A stretch of DNA of 64,000 nt from Candidatus Nanohalarchaeota archaeon (GCA_022729235.1 JALDAJ010000001.1:576001-640000); one strand, 5' to 3'; counted from the stretch's first letter, positions 42,770-50,186 are shown. Notes: generated by a model from the letters alone, not told the origin. A program made the numbers and translations.

Positions 42770-44512
42770 TCAAAATTCTTTGAGGTCGTTTCCGTCCATG
42801 AAACCTTTGAGGCTCTTCTCTAACTCTTCAACATTTACTCTTACCTGTTCAGTGGAGTCCCTGTCCCGGAGAGTCACGGTCCCGTCTTCCAGGGTCTGGT
42901 GGTCCACGGTCGCGCATATCGGCGTACCGATCTCGTCCTGCCGCCTGTAACGGCGACCGATAGCGCCTGAATCATCATACTTCACGGAGAAACCGCTTTC
43001 TCTTAGGCTCCTGGCGACTTTTCGTGCGCGCTCTCCCATCCCGTCCTTATCCATCAATGGGAATACAGCCACTTCTACAGGTGCGACTTCCGCGGGTAAG
43101 CGGAGAACGGTTCTCTCCTCTCCATCTACTTCGTCTTCCTCAAGGTTATGCGCTAGAACCGTGTAGAGTATTCGGTCGACACCGAACGACGGTTCTACAG
43201 TTTCAGGCATGATATGTTCTCCGGTCTCCTCAACTTCTTTTCGTGTAAATCCTGTTTTCTCCACGGGAACATTTACAGTCTCGCCATCGATTTCCAAGCT
43301 GATGCTTTCCTGCTCCTCGAACCTCTCCGGTTCTTCCTCCGCGATTCTCCCGAGTTCGTCCGCGATATCTGAGGCGCGGTCACCGTATTCAGGTCCAAGG
43401 ACGCTCATGTCTGGACTGACGGTTGCTTTCTCCACGGTCTTGGGCTCGTCGTATGGCTTGAAAACAGTGAAGTCTTCGCCCGAGTGCTCCTGGTGCTTCT
43501 TGAGGTCGTAGCATCCTCTGTACGCGAAACCTGTGATTTCAATCCAGTCACCTCCGACTTCAGATTCGGCGTCCCAGCAGTCGCTCGCGTAGTGCGACCT
43601 CTCGTCCTCCAGGTGCTGCCGGAACCTGAACCGGTCCATATCGATACCTATCCGCTCGTACCACTTCTTTGAGATACCGAGATAGTATGCTATCCAGTCG
43701 CTCGCGACCACGCCGTTTTCGACTGCTTCCGCCACGGTCATCTCGAGTACTTCTCCGCCGTCTTTATCCTGCTCGTTGATAGGGTAAAGGCGGAGCTCGA
43801 CGTCTTCCACGTCCTCCATTTCCGGTTCGTCTTTTTCTGGATCGATAAAGAACTCCAGCTCTGCCTGCGTGAACTCTCTGACGCGGACAATCGATTTCCG
43901 CGGTGATATCTCGTTCCTGTAAGCCTTTCCTATCTGTGTAACCCCGAACGGCAGCTGGTTGCGGGCGTATTCTTTCCACTGAGGGAACTCGACGAAGATT
44001 CCCTGAGCTGTTTCAGGTCGTAAGTAGCCGGGTGAGGAATCTCCTGGACCGATGTTTGTGCCGAACATCAGGTTGAAATCGTCGACTTCCACGTCTGCCA
44101 GTTCCTCGCCGCAGTTCGGACACTGGAGGCTGTTTTCTTCGATTATCTCCATTATCCTATCGGTGGAGAAGCTCTCCGCCTCCTCGATATCCGTGTTATC
44201 CTCGACCAGATGGTCTGCCCTGATGGATTCGCCGCACTCGGGGCATTCTATTATCATGTCGTCGAAGGTCTCAAGGTGCCCGGATGCCTCGAACACGTCT
44301 TCAGGCATGATTGTCGGTGCTTCTATCTCCATGTTGCCTTCCTGGTAGGTGAACCGGTCTCTCCATACATCCTCCAGGTTTCTCTTCAAGGCGGTACCGT
44401 GGGGTCCGAACGTGTAGAAACCGGCTGTACCTCCGTAAATCTCATTGGAGGGAATAAAAAATCCGCGTCTCTTCGCCAGTTCTTTCAGGCTCTGTGTGGT
44501 ATTCTGGGTCAC
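42770..44512 (-). CDS. glyS: Glycyl-tRNA synthetase (alpha2 type)
   Basis: RRGF, YLRPETAQG, RNEISPR, REFTQAE, EPSFGVDR, GRRYRRQDEIG; start GTG 44512 after SD GAGGTG. Confidence 0.97.
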   Translation of the reverse strand: MTQNTTQSLKELAKRRGFFIPSNEIYGGTAGFYTFGPHGTALKRNLEDVWRDRFTYQEGNMEIEAPTIMPEDVFEASGHLETFDDMIIECPECGESIRADHLVEDNTDIEEAESFSTDRIMEIIEENSLQCPNCGEELADVEVDDFNLMFGTNIGPGDSSPGYLRPETAQGIFVEFPQWKEYARNQLPFGVTQIGKAYRNEISPRKSIVRVREFTQAELEFFIDPEKDEPEMEDVEDVELRLYPINEQDKDGGEVLEMTVAEAVENGVVASDWIAYYLGISKKWYERIGIDMDRFRFRQHLEDERSHYASDCWDAESEVGGDWIEITGFAYRGCYDLKKHQEHSGEDFTVFKPYDEPKTVEKATVSPDMSVLGPEYGDRASDIADELGRIAEEEPERFEEQESISLEIDGETVNVPVEKTGFTRKEVEETGEHIMPETVEPSFGVDRILYTVLAHNLEEDEVDGEERTVLRLPAEVAPVEVAVFPLMDKDGMGERARKVARSLRESGFSVKYDDSGAIGRRYRRQDEIGTPICATVDHQTLEDGTVTLRDRDSTEQVRVNVEELEKSLKGFMDGNDLKEF

Positions 44513-44674
44513 TTTTGACACCTCTGGAAAAGTTGTCGATTAGAAGCCTTAAAAACCGACAGGACGAAAGAGCTAGAACTGGTTAAAGGGTTATTCGAAA
44601 CACGTGAAGTGTTTCTCAACGCAACTTCCTGGAGAAAGCTGCGAGAGTCCAAAGTAGCCACCCTTGATTGACAT
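44509..44674 (-). promoter_or_regulatory. glyS leader ORF MSIKGGYFG... with putative +1 frameshift cassette
   Basis: ATG TCA ATC AAG GGT GGC TAC TTT GGA; 0-frame stop 44591; +1 frame open to TGA overlapping glyS GTG. Confidence 0.75.
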
Positions 44675-44739
44675 AGATATCACAGTTGGTTCTGCTCGTG
44701 GAAAGCTTAAAAACCGTCCGAGTATTACGATGTAATATA

Positions 44740-45927
44740 ATGCCGGGTTCTGGAATGAAGAGTTTGGAAGATGCAGAGTTGGAAGGTAAAAGCGTGGTTC
44801 TCAGGACTGATCTAAACCTTCCTGTCGAGGACGGCGAGCCGCAGAAGACGGTCCGGTTTGAACGCTACATTGAAACAGTGAAGGAGCTCAGTGACGAAGG
44901 TGCGAGGACGATGGTAATCGCGCACCAGGGGAGACCGGCGAGGAAGGATTTCATGTCGCTGGAAAGACACGCAGAACTGATGTCGGAAGAGCTAGGGCAG
45001 GACGTTAACTTCGTACGGAGCTTCTTCGGACCGGAGCTTGGAGATGCAGTCGCCTCGATGGAGGACGGCGATGTAGTACTGCTTGAAAACATACGTTTCC
45101 TCTCCGAGGAGCTTCAAAACTTGCCCTCCGAGAGGCATTCTGATGATTATTTTATTGAGAATCTCTCCAGGTACTTCGATATTTTTGTAGACGATGCGTT
45201 CTCTGCATCACACCGCTCCCACGGATCGATAGTTGGATTCGTACCGCGCCTCGAATCCTATGCAGGACCTGTTATGCAGCGTGAACTGGAGAACTGTGGC
45301 AGGGTAAGAGATGAGCTTGACAATCCGTTGCTGGTTCTAGGAGGGGAGAAACCTTCCGATTTGATAGGTATGATGGAGCAGGTAATTGACCGGGCTGAGA
45401 AAGTACTGCTGGGCGGTATCCCTGGCGAACTTGCACTCAAGCTCCAGGGAAACGATCTCGGCGGGAAATCCGAGTGGATAGAGGAGCAGGGCTTTGACGG
45501 TAAGAGCAAGGAGCTTCAAAGAATCATCGAAGAACACGAGGAAAAGATAGTTCTGCCTGTAGATGTCAGAACGGACTCAGGTAACCACAAGATCGGTGAA
45601 GTCCCGGAAGGAGAGATGACATGGGATATCGGAGAGGAGACGCGGGAAAGGTTCGTGGAAGAGATAGGTGACGCGGAATCGATTGTCATGAAAGGTCCTA
45701 TGGGTGCGTTCGAGGATTATCCTGAGGGCACGCGAGCGGTAATCGATGCGATAGCAGAAAACGATGGCTTTACAGTACTCGGCGGAGGACACACATCTTC
45801 ACTTATACACCGATTCGGTCATGACCTCGACGAGTTCACACACGTCTCCATCGCGGGCGGAGCATTTGTCCGGTACATGAGCGGGGAAGAACTGCCCGCG
45901 GTCGAAGCGCTCAGGGAGTATTCTTAG
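44740..45927 (+). CDS. pgk: Phosphoglycerate kinase
   Basis: RTDLNLP, AHQGRP, LLENIRF, DAFSASHRSHGS, GGGHT, HVSIAGGA; start 44740 or 44755. Confidence 0.95.
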   Translation: MPGSGMKSLEDAELEGKSVVLRTDLNLPVEDGEPQKTVRFERYIETVKELSDEGARTMVIAHQGRPARKDFMSLERHAELMSEELGQDVNFVRSFFGPELGDAVASMEDGDVVLLENIRFLSEELQNLPSERHSDDYFIENLSRYFDIFVDDAFSASHRSHGSIVGFVPRLESYAGPVMQRELENCGRVRDELDNPLLVLGGEKPSDLIGMMEQVIDRAEKVLLGGIPGELALKLQGNDLGGKSEWIEEQGFDGKSKELQRIIEEHEEKIVLPVDVRTDSGNHKIGEVPEGEMTWDIGEETRERFVEEIGDAESIVMKGPMGAFEDYPEGTRAVIDAIAENDGFTVLGGGHTSSLIHRFGHDLDEFTHVSIAGGAFVRYMSGEELPAVEALREYS

Positions 45928-45985
45928 GGTCCGGATGTTGCTGACTGTCGAAATATACTTAACGCAGACTTCACAATAATGACGT

Positions 45986-46152
45986 ATGCAGCAAGGTGGC
46001 TGTTTTTGGACTTTTGCATCTGAATGATTTAGACAGCAGTATTTCTATTCCGGGTGGATGTTTTTGGGCCATCTAGTCTTCTAAAGGACAGGTTACGCTT
46101 TTCCCTGAACTATCTCAGAATCTGCTCAGTAAGGGAGCTTTCATGGCTTTAA
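45986..46152 (+). promoter_or_regulatory. Tandem Trp leader with two GGCFW cassettes chained by +1 frames
   Basis: MQQGGCFWTFASE*; its +1 frame reads ...SISIPGGCFWAI*. Confidence 0.7.
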
Positions 46153-46294
46153 TCAATTAAATCGGTTTTTATACACTTCAACATATTTTCTAAGTCTTTT
46201 AGATAGAAATAGTCATTATTCTATCTTTTTAGACTCTAAAAACCTCTAAAAGCTATTTAAAAGTTTTCTAACAACTGGAAAACACGTGATTAAA

Positions 46295-46369
46295 ATGACA
46301 AACGACACACAAGACGAAACACAGGCAGAAGCCCGACAGGGGGGATGTTTTTGGAGAACAAAATCTTGA
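46295..46369 (+). promoter_or_regulatory. Trp leader ORF MTNDTQDETQAEARQGGCFWRTKS*
   Basis: CAG GGG GGA TGT TTT TGG; TTTAAA box at about 46256. Confidence 0.7.
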
Positions 46370-46389
46370 AGAAGTTGTAAAGGGGGGCA

Positions 46390-46725
46390 TTGCTGGAGCA
46401 GGGTAGAGAAAGGGCTGTTTCGGTAATTGATAACTGTCTAACGATTGATGTAGACTCTTTCGATGAGGAAGTCTATTCAGAGGTTTTTGAGGTGCTGTTT
46501 TCTCCTGAAGAAGGATATCTAAGAGATGTTCCAGAGGACTTCCAATTCCGGCTCAGAAAAATATCGAGGTTCACTGTCGGCTGGGGTACGGAGTACTCGG
46601 AAACATATTCCAATGAACTAACTGGCCGTGATATCCGGGAGATGCAGAGGAAGGCGGTTGAAGAATCGTACACAGTTGGCTATTCCTCTGAAAAGTTCAT
46701 CGAACTGTACGAGGAGGTGATGTAG
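46390..46725 (+). CDS. Hypothetical protein upstream of trpS; true N-terminus uncertain
   Basis: Acidic ORF with TTG start; would continue the leader +1 frame if G6 at 46382-46387 were G5. Confidence 0.6.
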   Translation: MLEQGRERAVSVIDNCLTIDVDSFDEEVYSEVFEVLFSPEEGYLRDVPEDFQFRLRKISRFTVGWGTEYSETYSNELTGRDIREMQRKAVEESYTVGYSSEKFIELYEEVM

Positions 46726-46786
46726 TATCGCGGTAAGTGAGAAAGATTCCACCGGATATAAGAGCGCTAGGGAGGAATGATTAACC

Positions 46787-47890
46787 ATGCCAGAGATAGA
46801 TCCGTGGGGAGACGTTGAAGTCGGAGAGTACCGTGAAAAGATGGAGAAGTTTGGTATCGAGCCGATCGAAGAGATAGCAGATAAGCTCCCTGACCACCGA
46901 TACATAAGAAGAGGGATAATCTTCGGTCACCGCGGGATGGACGAGTACCTGGACGCGCTCGACGACGGCGAGGACGTGGCGATGATAACTGGTATAATGC
47001 CGTCCGGCATGTTCCACCTCGGGCACAAGATAGTGGTCGACCAGGTGCTGATGTACCAGGAGATGGGCGCAGACGTAACTCTCACTGCGGCGGACATCGA
47101 AGCGCACAACACCCGCGGTATCTCGCTGGAAGACGCGCGTGAGATGGTTATCGAGCAGTACCTGACCAATTACGTCGCTCTGGGTCTCGACCTGGAGAAC
47201 GTTGATTTCTACTTCCAGAGCCAGGCAGGCAACGACCACCTTGCCCGCTCCAAACTTTTCGCGAAGCACCTGACACGGAACGAGATGGACGCCACCTACG
47301 GAGAACCAAGTCCTGGTAAGATAGCGTCCGCATTAATGCAGTACGCCGACATACTGAGACCGCAGTTCCCGGAGAACGGCGGACCGAAACCAACTGTTGT
47401 TCCTGTTGGTATCGACCAGGACCCTCACATAAGACTGACCCGGGAGGTCGCGCGGAAGGCGTCTCAAGACTTCTACAAGCCCGCATCCATTTACAACAAG
47501 TTCATGCGCGGGCTTCAGGGTGGGAAGATGTCGAGCAGCGATCCGAAGAGCTACATCGCGCTTACAGATTCTGTTGAAGAGGAGAAACAGAAGATCGACG
47601 AGGCGAAGACTGGTGGTCGTGACACGCTGGAGGAGCACCGTGAGAAAGGTGCGGACGTTGAAGAGGACATGGTCTTCGAACTACTTGCTTTCCACCTTAT
47701 CGAGGACGACTCCGAGCTTGAACGTATCCGTGAAGAGTATGAGTCGGGCGAGATGCTGTCCGGAGAACTCAAGCAGATAGCGAAGGAGAAACTGGAGGAG
47801 TTCCTCCTCGCGCATAAAGAGAGGAGAGAAGACGCGCGTGAAGAAGTCGAACAGTTCGTCGAGGAGAACGTAGAGTCAGAACTTGTTTAA
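46787..47890 (+). CDS. trpS: Tryptophanyl-tRNA synthetase
   Basis: FHLGH, VPVGIDQDPH, KMSSS, AKTGGR, GEMLSGELK. Confidence 0.96.
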   Translation: MPEIDPWGDVEVGEYREKMEKFGIEPIEEIADKLPDHRYIRRGIIFGHRGMDEYLDALDDGEDVAMITGIMPSGMFHLGHKIVVDQVLMYQEMGADVTLTAADIEAHNTRGISLEDAREMVIEQYLTNYVALGLDLENVDFYFQSQAGNDHLARSKLFAKHLTRNEMDATYGEPSPGKIASALMQYADILRPQFPENGGPKPTVVPVGIDQDPHIRLTREVARKASQDFYKPASIYNKFMRGLQGGKMSSSDPKSYIALTDSVEEEKQKIDEAKTGGRDTLEEHREKGADVEEDMVFELLAFHLIEDDSELERIREEYESGEMLSGELKQIAKEKLEEFLLAHKERREDAREEVEQFVEENVESELV

Positions 47891-47914: not shown

Positions 47915-48610
47915 ATGTTGCCCGAGTTGATACTGCGTGAGGAGGAAGAGGAGAACCTTCCTCTGCTTGCAGTTCTAGGTCTCGCATCAGGTCTGGCAGG
48001 ATTTATTGCTGCAAGAGCTCTTTTTCCATCGCAGATAGATCTTCTTACGGTGATTTTTGCCTCGATACCGCTTGTATACCCTCTCGTGACGTATTTCCTG
48101 GAGCGTGAGAACGAGTCGCGACCCCATCTCCCGGAGATACAGGTCTACGGTTCGATTTTCCTTGGAATGGCGGCAGCATTCTTTATCCTGGGCTTGTATA
48201 ATCCTGAGTTATTCTCATTGCAGAATGCTATTATAGGTGCTGCAGGGCATGCAGTCAATCCAGTATCCTTCACCACGGTCTTATCCAATAACCTGATGGT
48301 GTTCCTGGGGATTCTGGCTGTCGCGTCGATTATAGGGTCGGCAGGAGCCTTTATACTGACCTGGAATGCCTCAGTCTTAGGAGTCTTCATGGCAGGGCTT
48401 GTACGTGACTCTATTCTCATGCCGTTCGCCTACATCCCCCACGCGTCTCTGGAGATGGCAGGGTTCATAGTCGCAGGAGTTGCAGGTACAATGATCTCTG
48501 CCGCAGTCTACAGAGAGCATTTCGATAAGGATACATGGCTCGACCTCTCAAAGCTGGTCGCCACGGGTGTTGGACTGATAGTCATCGCGGCGGTGCTGGA
48601 GACTGCGTAG
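47915..48610 (+). CDS. SpoIIM-family membrane protein
   Basis: NNLMVF, WNASVLG, PHASLEMAG, AAVLE. Confidence 0.85.
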   Translation: MLPELILREEEEENLPLLAVLGLASGLAGFIAARALFPSQIDLLTVIFASIPLVYPLVTYFLERENESRPHLPEIQVYGSIFLGMAAAFFILGLYNPELFSLQNAIIGAAGHAVNPVSFTTVLSNNLMVFLGILAVASIIGSAGAFILTWNASVLGVFMAGLVRDSILMPFAYIPHASLEMAGFIVAGVAGTMISAAVYREHFDKDTWLDLSKLVATGVGLIVIAAVLETA

Positions 48611-48641
48611 ATATTAAAATCTGTGGTACAAGAAGAGAGTT

Positions 48642-48798
48642 ATGTCACCATCCGAAGCACAGGGAACACTGAAGGGTGGACGTTTTTTCCGCCTGTGAAA
48701 GGCAGATTAACAGCTCTATTTCTGGATTGGTTTTTTCGAGGTCTCGGACAGGTATCGCTCAGATATTAAAGTTTAATTTGGGAGGTGTAAACCTGTGA
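48642..48798 (+). promoter_or_regulatory. pheS leader ORF MSPSEAQGTLKGGRFFRL* with putative +1 frameshift cassette
   Basis: AAG GGT GGA CGT TTT TTC; 0-frame stop 48698; +1 frame open to TGA 48796-48798 overlapping pheS GTG. Confidence 0.75.
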
Positions 48799-50186
48799 GA
48801 CTTTCAAGCCAGTCAATACAGGTTCTGGAAGAACTGAGAGAACAGAGCCCACGCACGGTCGAAGATCTGGAAAAAGAGGGATACGACCAGTCGATGGTTC
48901 ACCGTGCCGCGATGGAACTTGAAGAAAAAGGAATTGTTAACTACAGGGAGGAGGAAGAGGTAGAATGGGTCATAACTCCTGCCGGCGAAGAAGTAATTCA
49001 AGAAGGCTCGCCCGAGCACCAGCTAATAGAGAGGCTTGCGGATGGAGCTGTACCGCTCTCCGAACTTGAAGATCTCGACCTGGATGTCGCGCTTGGAAAG
49101 GCGCGGGAGAAGGGATGGGTCCGTATCAAGGAGGGCGAGGTCTCGCTTACCGAACAGGGACGGCAGGGTCTCGGCTCGGACCGTGTTCAAAACAAGTTAA
49201 AGGACCAGGAATACGACGAAGAGGTCCGTGAGAGAGGGCTGGTCGCGCCGCAGGAAAGAACTGAACGAATACTGGATTTGACTGGTGAAGGAGAAGCCAT
49301 AGATACAGGAGAGCTAGGAGAGGAGTTCAACGTCGAGGCGCGGGTGAAAACACCGCGGACAGGTAAGAAACATTTCTACCGCGAGATAATGGACTACGCC
49401 CGCCGTGTGTGGAAAGACATGGGCTTCGAGGAGATGAGCGGTGACTACGTCACCTCCGGACTGATGAACTTCGACGCGCTTTACATCCCGCAAGACCACC
49501 CTGCCAGAGAGCTCCAGGACTCGTTCTTCATGGAGACTCCGGCGAAAACAGATTTATCCATTTATGGGGGAAAGGTGCAGGAAGTGAAAGACGTCCACGA
49601 GTTTGGTGGTGATGCCGGCGGTAAGGGATGGCAGTACGATTGGTCGCGTGAAGACGCGGAAAGAAACGTGCTGAGAACACATACAACTGACGTTTCCGCG
49701 AAGAGGCTCCACGAGATGGAGATTAACGAGGAGGAGCTACCGAAAAAGTTCTTCTGTCTTGGTAGAGCGTTCAGGAATGAGACGGTTGACAGGACTCACA
49801 ACGCAGAGTTCTACCAGACCGACGGTATCGTCGTAGGAAAAGACCTGAGCTTCCGCAACCTGAAAGGTTACCTGAGCGAGTTCTTCGAGAAGATGGGTTA
49901 CAGCGAGTTCCGGCTTATCCCCTCCTACTACCCCTACACGGAGATGAGCGTAGAGGTACAGGTCTGGGACGATGAAGACGAGGAATGGCTCGGGATGGGT
50001 GGAGCAGGTATGTTCCGCCCGGAAGTTGTGAAACCGATGCTGGGCTTCGAGGCGACAGTACTGGCATGGGGTCTAGGAATCGGGAGGATAGCCATGATAA
50101 ACGCCGAACTCAACGATATAAGAGAGCTTTACAGGAACGATATCGAAATCCTGGAACAGACACCTGTATGGAGGCCTGATCAGTAA
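48795..50186 (+). CDS. pheS: Phenylalanyl-tRNA synthetase alpha subunit
   Basis: NFDAL, PQDHPARELQD, LRTHTT, FRNE, YYPYTE, GAGMFRPEV. Confidence 0.97.
   Translation: MRLSSQSIQVLEELREQSPRTVEDLEKEGYDQSMVHRAAMELEEKGIVNYREEEEVEWVITPAGEEVIQEGSPEHQLIERLADGAVPLSELEDLDLDVALGKAREKGWVRIKEGEVSLTEQGRQGLGSDRVQNKLKDQEYDEEVRERGLVAPQERTERILDLTGEGEAIDTGELGEEFNVEARVKTPRTGKKHFYREIMDYARRVWKDMGFEEMSGDYVTSGLMNFDALYIPQDHPARELQDSFFMETPAKTDLSIYGGKVQEVKDVHEFGGDAGGKGWQYDWSREDAERNVLRTHTTDVSAKRLHEMEINEEELPKKFFCLGRAFRNETVDRTHNAEFYQTDGIVVGKDLSFRNLKGYLSEFFEKMGYSEFRLIPSYYPYTEMSVEVQVWDDEDEEWLGMGGAGMFRPEVVKPMLGFEATVLAWGLGIGRIAMINAELNDIRELYRNDIEILEQTPVWRPDQ

Follow-up and report, generated by a model that had tools for sequence, protein, structure and literature searches.

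Tandem leader cassettes between pgk and trpS of a nanohaloarchaeon as candidate +1 frameshift sensors of amino acid supply

In a stretch of 64,000 nucleotides from Candidatus Nanohalarchaeota archaeon (GCA_022729235.1, JALDAJ010000001.1:576001-640000; the whole stretch is called the window here), the gene for tryptophan--tRNA ligase (trpS, 46787-47890, +) is separated from the upstream gene pgk (44686-45927, +) by a gap of 860 nt, which contains three copies of one short sequence, GGNGGNTGTTTTTGG, at 45995, 46053, and 46340. What are these copies for, and why are the first two exactly one reading frame apart? An earlier note on this DNA had taken the first two for tryptophan (Trp)-sensing frameshift sites wired in series, the regulated gene of which may have been lost. 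Comparison with relatives points to a cassette whose last codon changes with the gene downstream and which probably directs ribosomes into the +1 frame when that codon is starved; a lost gene does not belong to this picture.

The cassettes are not chance matches. In the whole genome of 1,027,595 bases, GGNGGNTGTTTTTGG occurred three times on the forward strand, never on the reverse strand, and never when the reversed pattern was used as control; the expectation by chance, from our own arithmetic on the 13 fixed bases, is ∼0.03 copies. All three copies lie within 360 nt, on the strand of trpS (+), between pgk and trpS. A looser Trp-type pattern, GGKGRNYRYKTTTGG, matched six times forward, and neither in reverse nor in the controls. 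When 70 genomes of the same class and phylum were scanned with it, 44 contained Trp-type cassettes (96 matches compared with ∼20 in the reversed control; own count), mostly as same-strand pairs 250–330 nt apart. The set analyzed in detail comprised 41 loci with 83 cassettes, 77 of them first cassettes (loci are numbered with L, genomes with G).

From these loci, a recurrent layout of two units emerged. The upstream one (unit A) consists of a TATA-like box ending ∼23 nt ahead of an ATG, two to four codons, the cassette, and sometimes a second cassette, and its +1 frame leads to a conserved peptide, roughly (N)SLSHSYLQ-ISSVKNFSW. It is followed, after an AT-rich spacer of ∼150–200 nt, by unit B, which has its own TATA box, GTGAT 4–9 nt ahead of the ATG, a leader of 7–24 codons, and the cassette; the +1 frame behind it encodes a real protein or, alternatively, contains a short open reading frame (ORF) that ends over the start of the next gene. 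In the window, the TATA-like box of unit A (45954-45963, +) has a TTAA ending 23 nt ahead of ATG 45986; therefore, the transcript, its start being deduced from the box, is probably leaderless. A TTTAA or CTTAA box was seen by eye ∼21–24 nt ahead of the ATG in most of 35 aligned unit A leaders.

ATG 45986 opens the frame-0 leader 1, MQQGGCFWTFASE (45986-46027, +; stop TGA 46025-46027), within which cassette 1, GGTGGCTGTTTTTGG (GGT GGC TGT TTT TGG, 45995-46009, +), carries the proposed shift site TTT_T and the putatively sensed Trp codon TGG (46007-46009). The first +1 frame, GLLHLNDLDSSISIPGGCFWAI (46008-46076, +; stop TAG 46074-46076), has cassette 2, GGTGGATGTTTTTGG (GGT GGA TGT TTT TGG, 46053-46067, +), in frame, 58 nt past cassette 1. 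As 58 equals 19 × 3 + 1, cassette 2, which has no ATG in its frame 0, lies in the +1 frame of leader 1, just as the earlier note had claimed; the only possible starts in its own frame are GTG 45996 and TTG 46014. The second +1 frame, GPSSLLKDRLRFSLNYLRICSVRELSWL (46066-46152, +; 28 codons, stop TAA 46150-46152), contains the conserved terminal peptide ICSVRELSW (46120-46146, +; consensus I-S-S-V-x-x-x-S-W), the last codon of which (46144-46146) would be a second-stage Trp codon. All positions previously assigned to the leader ATG, the cassettes, the stops, the ATG at 46143 with its product MALIN*, and an AGGGAG motif (46132-46137) were confirmed.

Both frames are read. All 77 first cassettes lie within an ATG-led mini-ORF that is open through TGG in frame 0, as opposed to 11 of 77 in the +1 and 9 of 77 in the +2 frame (41 loci); frame 0 is read up to the cassette, and most leaders end 2–13 codons past it. 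Beyond the cassette, the +1 frame is protein-coding. The terminal peptide I-S-S-V-x-x-x-S-W, searched as a fixed expression in all three frames, was present in 33 loci, in the +1 frame, and no other, of the nearest cassette upstream, without an intervening stop and at an offset of 14–37 codons; three further loci with variant endings (L075, L082, and L087; by eye) bring this number to 36. Its variability by codon position was 1.19, 0.88, and 1.72 bits, that is, highest at the third positions, and synonymous codons are used for Ile (ATT, ATC, ATA) and Ser (TCN and AGC), which is the pattern of a coding region. The expression used as anchor partly biases these values; flanking codons outside it follow the same trend. 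Enzymes also follow the cassette directly in the +1 frame, among them a TrpD-like protein, an aminotransferase, GNAT, and M20, and such fused proteins are conserved from the first residues past the cassette. Apart from a GTG inside the cassette itself, 18 of the 32 long +1 ORFs have no canonical start in frame at or before the cassette, and tens of codons mostly separate the latter from the next start.

The codon following TTT or GTT varies, and it matches the regulated gene. Short ATG-led ORFs containing the 5′ part of the cassette, with the codon behind it left free, were sought across the genome, and the genes downstream were checked by NCBIfam equivalogs above cut-offs. Ahead of pheS, the cassette (KGGRF-F, UUC; 48675-48689, +) is followed by a +1 ORF whose TGA overlaps GTG 48795 as GTGA, and ahead of glyS (KGGYF-G, GGA; 44662-44648, minus strand), such a GTGA is located at 44512-44509. 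Overlaps of the ATGA type were found for thrS (KGGCF-T, ACC), leuS (KGGHV-L, CUA), and valS (KGGRF-V, GUA). The +1 frame stops just past the start of serS (KGGRF-S, UCC; ATGCTTGA) and 8–17 nt past candidate GTG starts of lysS (GDCF-K, AAG), and for QGGYF-H (CAC), the +1 ORF overlaps the first, AbrB-like gene of an operon ending in hisS. Including UGG and trpS, the sensed codon matches the downstream synthetase in nine cases in this genome, and in six of the eight non-Trp copies, the +1 ORF stops on or just past the gene start. In relatives, G018 has Ser, Tyr, Gly, Thr, and Cys cassettes before serS, tyrS, glyS, thrS, and cysS; Thr precedes thrS in G035, His is fused to hisG in G011, Phe precedes pheS in G001, and Gly precedes glyS in G005 and, judged from the N-terminal sequence only, in G016. 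The latter two genomes have no Trp cassette. Because the same cassette carries other codons before matching synthetase genes, the comparison strongly supports sensing by the codon that follows TTT or GTT.

As the sensed codon is read only in frame 0 and the output only in the +1 frame, the simplest link between the two would be a +1 slip of the P-site tRNA on KUU_N. We consider it probable that the cassettes are sites of +1 frameshifting at a starved codon, comparable to that of release factor 2 (RF2). Accordingly modeled, the ribosome would start at ATG 45986 on the probably leaderless mRNA, read K/Q-G-G-C-F, and pause for Trp-tRNA at UGG. If charged tRNA-Trp is plentiful, reading would continue and stop a few codons on; if it is scarce, the P-site tRNA-Phe would slip from UUU to the overlapping UUU one base on, and translation would go on in the +1 frame. 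There, a second cassette with identical encoded residues follows 58 nt on, which would require two successive slips, like an AND gate; that this tandem arrangement makes a steeper sensor is plausible. The last frame would encode the conserved peptide ...YLRICSVRELSW, ending in a third Trp codon with a stop close behind. Unit A would then be a conserved sensor ∼150–200 nt ahead of unit B (ATG 46295, cassette 46340), and the +1 frame of the latter would feed the first gene of the trpS operon. We infer that ribosomal slipping links the frames, that it responds to starvation, and that unit A acts on unit B. By analogy with RF2, the logic would be homeostatic.

How unit A could act on unit B may be hinted at by a T5 run (46166-46170, +), 19 nt past the terminal Trp codon, which is a possible archaeal terminator. 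Runs of at least four T were present within 10–45 nt of the terminal W in many loci, against an AT-rich background. As a guess of low confidence, a ribosome stalled at the terminal W beside the T-run would affect termination or favor read-through into unit B.

With slightly less assurance than for frameshifting as such, we favor the wider view of a phylum-wide regulon. In it, the cassette AAR-GGU-GGA-YRY-KUU plus a specifier codon would report the charging of one tRNA, and the +1 slip together with stop/start coupling would switch on the cognate synthetase or supply genes. Cassettes would be wired as a series AND (Trp) or a same-frame OR (Ile+Leu, Val+Leu), with second-stage sensor codons ending the +1 ORF, which would amount to an archaeal, ribosome-based counterpart of the T-box.

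The nucleotides of the cassette are consistent with a shift site. The consensus GGUGR-N-YRY-KUU holds for 83 of 83 Trp cassettes, as does KUU_U (66 UUU, 17 GUU); in non-Trp cassettes, the base after KUU varies, which leaves re-pairing at the first two positions only. The E-site codon is limited to CGY, UGY, UAY, and CAY, all read by G34 tRNAs present in the genome, and the needed tRNAs Phe-GAA, Val-GAC, and a single Trp-CCA are present as well. The 3′ end of 16S rRNA (...GGATCACCTCC) includes UCACC, with which GGUGR can pair. The protein of either reading frame leaves these constraints on the 15-mer unexplained, and a recoding site appears to fit them better than a protein motif. When the loci were scanned for any ATG-led xTTTGG element, no deviating cassette was found, and when other bases were tolerated at the fixed positions in a scan of the genome, everything short of a full match was noise.

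The encoded string GGCFW also occurs within the active-site motif of MsrA (PF01625), GGCFWC. A search of relatives for GGCFW in any coding (GGNGGNTGYTTYTGG) gave matches in 28 of 41 genomes, for most of which the loci were examined: 24 were long ORFs with GGCFWC, all using TTC (the one that was checked matched Pfam PMSR), and 13 were mini-ORFs, all using TTT. One further TTT match (L023), antisense to a 301-aa ORF, was taken as chance. An MsrA identity of the window cassettes was rejected, as they are situated in ORFs of 14–39 codons and use TTT, not TTC. In the literature, the strings GGCFW and GGRFW were found only for MsrA or in unrelated contexts.

Six double cassettes were found, in five genomes of two families. 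Their spacing, the conservation of which modulo 3 had been set beforehand as a test, was 58 nt in five loci (the window, a second locus of this genome near 831.5 kb, G014, G032, and G036) and 52 nt in one (G011), and was 1 mod 3 in six of six. Of the six second cassettes, four lack an in-frame ATG. Four of the doubles have the terminal ...SW peptide in a frame that opens only through two +1 steps; in the two remaining ones, that frame runs into an aminotransferase, by fusion in G011 (L066) and by a TAATG overlap in G032 (L071), where trpS is next. The 58-nt module corresponds to the distance from the cassette to ISSV in the commonest single-cassette units (offset 15 codons); hence, the doubles look like tandem duplications of one module with a length of 1 mod 3.

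The same frames would also result from ordinary initiation. The +1 ORFs could be overlapping genes that start, without recoding, at the GTG that the cassette contains (GTG 45996 and GTG 46054 in cassettes 1 and 2), the frame-0 mini-ORF being an overlapping upstream ORF that modulates them. The +1 frame has such a GTG in 81 of the 83 cassettes, among them all 32 that precede long ORFs, and it is the sole canonical start at or before the cassette in the 18 long ORFs mentioned above. This is the most serious alternative. We nevertheless regard it as unlikely. The sensed codon lies 9–11 nt past the GTG, so that a ribosome stalled there would presumably cover it and lower expression in starvation, the opposite of what genes for synthetases and biosynthesis would need. 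Initiation would also have to occur internally, at a distance of 7–16 nt from the ATG of the leader (only 7 nt where the leader is as short as M-K), on mRNAs that are probably leaderless or very short-leadered. Moreover, all 83 cassettes agree in G1, R5, Y7, Y9, and K10, and these correspond to a non-codon base or to four-fold third positions in the +1 frame. The two cassettes with GGG for GTG retain conserved +1 peptides; they are weak witnesses, however, as the +1 ORF of one (cassette 3 of the window) has just 17 codons and the other (L058) has TTG codons downstream.

Other observations, too, weigh against frameshifting or against its extension to a regulon, and all support for it comes from comparing sequences. 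The Trp-type cassette is absent in 26 of the 70 genomes, and in four genomes without a match, which were examined for variants, pgk, an AstE-like gene, and trpS are present and no leader was found. The Shine-Dalgarno-like GGUGR is located 4 nt ahead of the P-site codon, which is a normal, start-like distance and not the short one of RF2; the Shine-Dalgarno spacing statistics of the genome are noisy on this point. A slip on GUU (17 of 83 cassettes), or ahead of a sensed codon starting with A or G, would leave re-pairing imperfect. One cassette, for Tyr, is fused to a MazE/AbrB-like mini-protein, tyrS being located elsewhere without a cassette, and an in-frame Ile+Leu pair is far from ileS; neither ileS nor tyrS of this genome was found to have a cassette when checked.

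Less probable still is that the leader peptide stalls ribosomes on Trp codons without any frame change, acting, for example, on mRNA stability or on the termination of transcription, in which case the +1 ORFs would be translated on their own. The frame-0 leaders do contain amino-acid-specific codons, T-runs follow the terminal W, and the branched-chain units described below end in runs of the sensed residues, like classical attenuators. The RNA offers no corresponding structure: RNAalifold found 0 conserved pairs in 11 unit A sequences, and the window unit folds no better than shuffled sequence (z = +1.25). In addition, stalling alone would not account for the opening of the +1 output ORF, in every case, exactly at the cassette, for the missing ATG of second cassettes, or for the constant spacing of 1 mod 3.

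That the 15-mer is the binding site of a protein or RNA regulator, its frame relations being secondary, is very unlikely. The 15-mer is indeed strongly conserved at the nucleotide level, also outside the codons: position −1 is A in 66 of 83 cassettes, and position 6 is A in 71. The site is strand-specific and non-palindromic, though, an ATG-led frame accompanies it in 77 of 77 cases, and its one variable codon follows the amino acid of the downstream gene, which a single common site would not do; nor is there an Rfam family or a tRNA gene in the region. An RNA gene or structured RNA was likewise rejected, as 45800-46900 gave no Rfam match at E ≤ 1 and no tRNA, in addition to the lack of conserved pairs and of a fold better than that of shuffles.

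As for the supposedly deleted gene, 33 of the 41 loci (36 with the three variants judged by eye) end like the window copy, across three families, and no gene starts there; the stop follows the conserved W of unit A at a median of 3 codons. No gene starts at the equivalent of ATG 46143 in any relative, where the earlier note had suggested looking for one. This ATG, which opens only MALIN* (46143-46160, +), is not a conserved gene start and was judged incidental: among the NTG triplets that overlap the W codon in 33 loci, 27 are start codons, compared with 75% expected by chance. The AGGGAG that had been pointed out ahead of it represents the Arg-Glu codons of this copy and reads AGAAAT or AAAAAT in relatives. 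A third slip past the terminal W was rejected, since the frames there are not consistently open (medians of 3, 12, and 19 codons). So was a frame linkage between unit A and unit B, because their distances fall 9, 11, and 13 into the three residue classes by our own arithmetic and, thus, look random. That unit A once drove a Trp-related gene from ATG 46143 is highly improbable on these grounds, even if the double cassettes of L071 and L066 do drive an aminotransferase and the stop-over-start layout is similar to that of the synthetase leaders. The sequence indicates that the short ending of unit A is the conserved state, with no gene missing.

Which known systems does frameshifting at these cassettes resemble? 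The autoregulatory +1 shift in RF2 (prfB) takes place at CUU_U, rarely UUU_U, with a Shine-Dalgarno-like stimulator and an E-site effect, as given in the portion of a review that deals with it (PMC5009743). Shared with the mechanism proposed for the cassettes are a short frame-0 ORF that ends soon past the shift site with the useful product in +1, an NUU_U shift at a slow A-site codon, a purine-rich Shine-Dalgarno-like element, putative here, a few bases upstream, and the influence of the E-site codon, as far as the same portion of that review describes them (PMC5009743). The regulated factor is, in both, the decoder of the A-site codon, the slow decoding of which is a prediction here. The slow codon of the cassettes differs in being a sense codon that changes with the regulated gene, and, instead of a fusion, a short bridging ORF with coupling to a gene start is often the output. 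The archaeal host, the Shine-Dalgarno-like spacing, and the occurrence of cassettes in series and in parallel set them apart further.

Like the trpL attenuator, the units have a mini-ORF with codons for the regulating amino acid, and sensing would be by the translating ribosome; they lack a conserved terminator/antiterminator pairing (see the RNAalifold result and z score above), and the proposed effector is a change of frame. The conserved terminal peptide ending in W near a stop recalls arrest peptides of the TnaC type. With T-boxes, the cassettes share the principle of a common cis element with one variable specifier codon matching the downstream gene, which is a functional analogy only: T-boxes, which also occur as tandem copies, are structured RNAs binding uncharged tRNA without translation, whereas the specifier is part of a translated ORF here, and there is no Rfam match. 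In bacteria, such amino-acid-specific control of synthetase genes is well known (T-boxes, attenuators). A literature search yielded no archaeal cis-acting equivalent and no description of this cassette system.

In the portion of a 2025 study that covers it, ribosomes were proposed to shift +1 from an overlapping upstream ORF into the main ORF of Caenorhabditis elegans zip-2 when elongation is slow (PMC11831180). As presented there, this system differs in being eukaryotic and a general sensor of elongation stress, with no single amino acid and no shared cassette. In antizyme, +1 frameshifting is both sensor and effector of a homeostatic loop, according to the pertinent section of a 2021 review (PMC8211752); here, the difference is that polyamines are sensed at a stop codon, in eukaryotes. 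For cellular genes of archaea, the same review names only one programmed frameshift as proven, and this is a −1 event (PMC8211752), and the passage on "hungry codons" in a 2016 review states that no such frameshifting yielding starvation-specific trans-frame proteins was known (PMC5009743). If the proposed mechanism is true, the cassette would be a compact, portable sensor of ∼15 nt with its specificity set by one codon, would offer natural examples of series and parallel wiring, and would provide a handle on how very small, host-dependent archaea monitor amino acids obtained externally.

Unit B of the window has its promoter region at 46254-46290 (+), with TATTTAAAAG at 46254-46263 and a Shine-Dalgarno-like CGTGAT at 46285-46290, 4 nt ahead of ATG 46295. 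The frame-0 leader 3, MTNDTQDETQAEARQGGCFWRTKS (46295-46369, +; stop TGA 46367-46369), contains cassette 3 (GGG GGA TGT TTT TGG, 46340-46354, +), which is among only 2 of 83 cassettes without an internal GTG. Its +1 ORF, GEQNLEEVVKGGIAGAG (46353-46406, +; stop TAG 46404-46406), has no canonical start codon in its frame and overlaps TTG 46390 of the next ORF. The latter (46390-46725, +) encodes a small acidic protein of 111 aa, the first gene fed by unit B, for which a Pfam search gave no match. It is 56.5% identical to the protein of L051, which is fused directly to its cassette, and the first 11 residues of the cassette 3 +1 ORF (GEQNLEEVVKG) match GDQNLEEIIRE of that homolog.

The acidic protein (46353-46406 and 46381-46725) is divided over two frames at a G6 run (46382-46387): its first 11 residues are in the +1 frame, as in the intact 125-aa homolog of G046 (L051), and the remainder is one frame further. 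The G-run is identical in a second assembly, which probably stems from the same source sample, is identical over 45900-46900, and is not an independent sample. Three causes of the split are conceivable: a recent mutation shifted the frame, translation restarts at TTG 46390, or ribosomes slip once more, on GGG_G.

The other three matches of GGKGRNYRYKTTTGG in this genome make up the second Trp locus of the same layout near 831.5 kb (L067, G000:C1:831050-834900). Its two cassettes, 58 nt apart, encode GGCFW and GDCFW, the terminal peptide is ISSVRNISW, and a unit B follows, the +1 ORF of which stops 8 nt past the ATG of a 148-aa acidic protein, with AGGAGGTGA ahead of that ATG.

The order of genes in the window is GlyRS (42770-44521, minus), pgk, the gap, trpS, a SpoIIM-like gene, and pheS (48795-50186). 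The trpS product belongs to PF00579 and exceeded the cut-offs of two trpS equivalogs (TIGR00233, 247 bits, cut-off 176.75; NF008926, 384.8 bits, cut-off 320); the best-scoring model, NF008925, gave 434.5 bits, under its cut-off of 451. Downstream ORFs were scanned in 35 loci of the detailed set. A class I W/Y synthetase (PF00579) was present in 20, three of which also have trpB and trpA, trpE/G was present in one, and a TrpD-like gene in two. Genes for GNAT, M20 peptidase, enolase-superfamily, AstE/AspA-like, and aminotransferase proteins are often interposed downstream of the Trp leader. In L060-L063, L074, L079, L083, L087, and L088, GNAT, M20 peptidase, enolase-superfamily (MR_MLE), and sometimes AstE/AspA-like genes are located between the Trp leader and trpS, a set which we take to resemble N-acyl-amino-acid racemase/deacylase salvage routes, possibly for tryptophan.

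A wider search for double cassettes returned 110 stretches from metagenomes, and those retrieved as loci showed no leader or peptide signature. From genomes, it returned 34 stretches, of which only three were real (two nanohaloarchaeal records and one "uncultured archaeon"), all on contigs already in the set; the rest were bacterial repeats.

The pheS copy (window 48610-48798, +) has a TATA box at 48610-48619, the leader MSPSEAQGTLKGGRFFRL (ATG 48642, stop 48696-48698), and a 36-codon +1 ORF; GGGAGGTG is located 8 nt upstream of the GTGA overlap (48795-48798). In the glyS copy (window 44713-44509, minus), the leader MSIKGGYFG... starts at ATG 44674-44672 and the +1 ORF has 46 codons. As its TGA (44511-44509) overlaps GTG 44512-44510, nine bases inside the listed GlyRS ORF, this second GTG may be the real start of glyS.

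Branched-chain units (G000:C1:457145, +; L247 and L268 in G018) combine two cassettes, Ile+Leu or Val+Leu, within one frame, so that a shift could be triggered by either. Each +1 ORF closes with a run of these residues (...YIIILFIILLFLL, ...LAIAIILLIILIL, and ...LVSVELVALLLLVSLL), which parallels the terminal W of the Trp unit A, and a small basic ORF with its own Shine-Dalgarno sequence follows. The Tyr cassette of L243 (G000:C1:965500-968330, minus) is fused in +1 to the MazE/AbrB-like protein, which has 52 aa, and the His cassette of L244 (G000:C1:884300-887500) is followed by the AbrB-like gene (81 aa), a gene for 252 aa, and hisS; small DNA-binding proteins may, thus, be part of the circuit.

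ARAGORN detected 35 tRNA genes in the whole genome only when introns were allowed, 20 of them with predicted introns; the sole tRNA-Trp (CCA) has an intron of 102 nt. Many unit B leaders encode A-E-A-R/Q immediately ahead of the cassette (e.g., window 46322-46339), and the codon preceding the cassette is mostly AAR or CAG (A at −1 as given above; G or A at position 0 in 71 of 83), which hints at an effect of the nascent peptide or of extended pairing.

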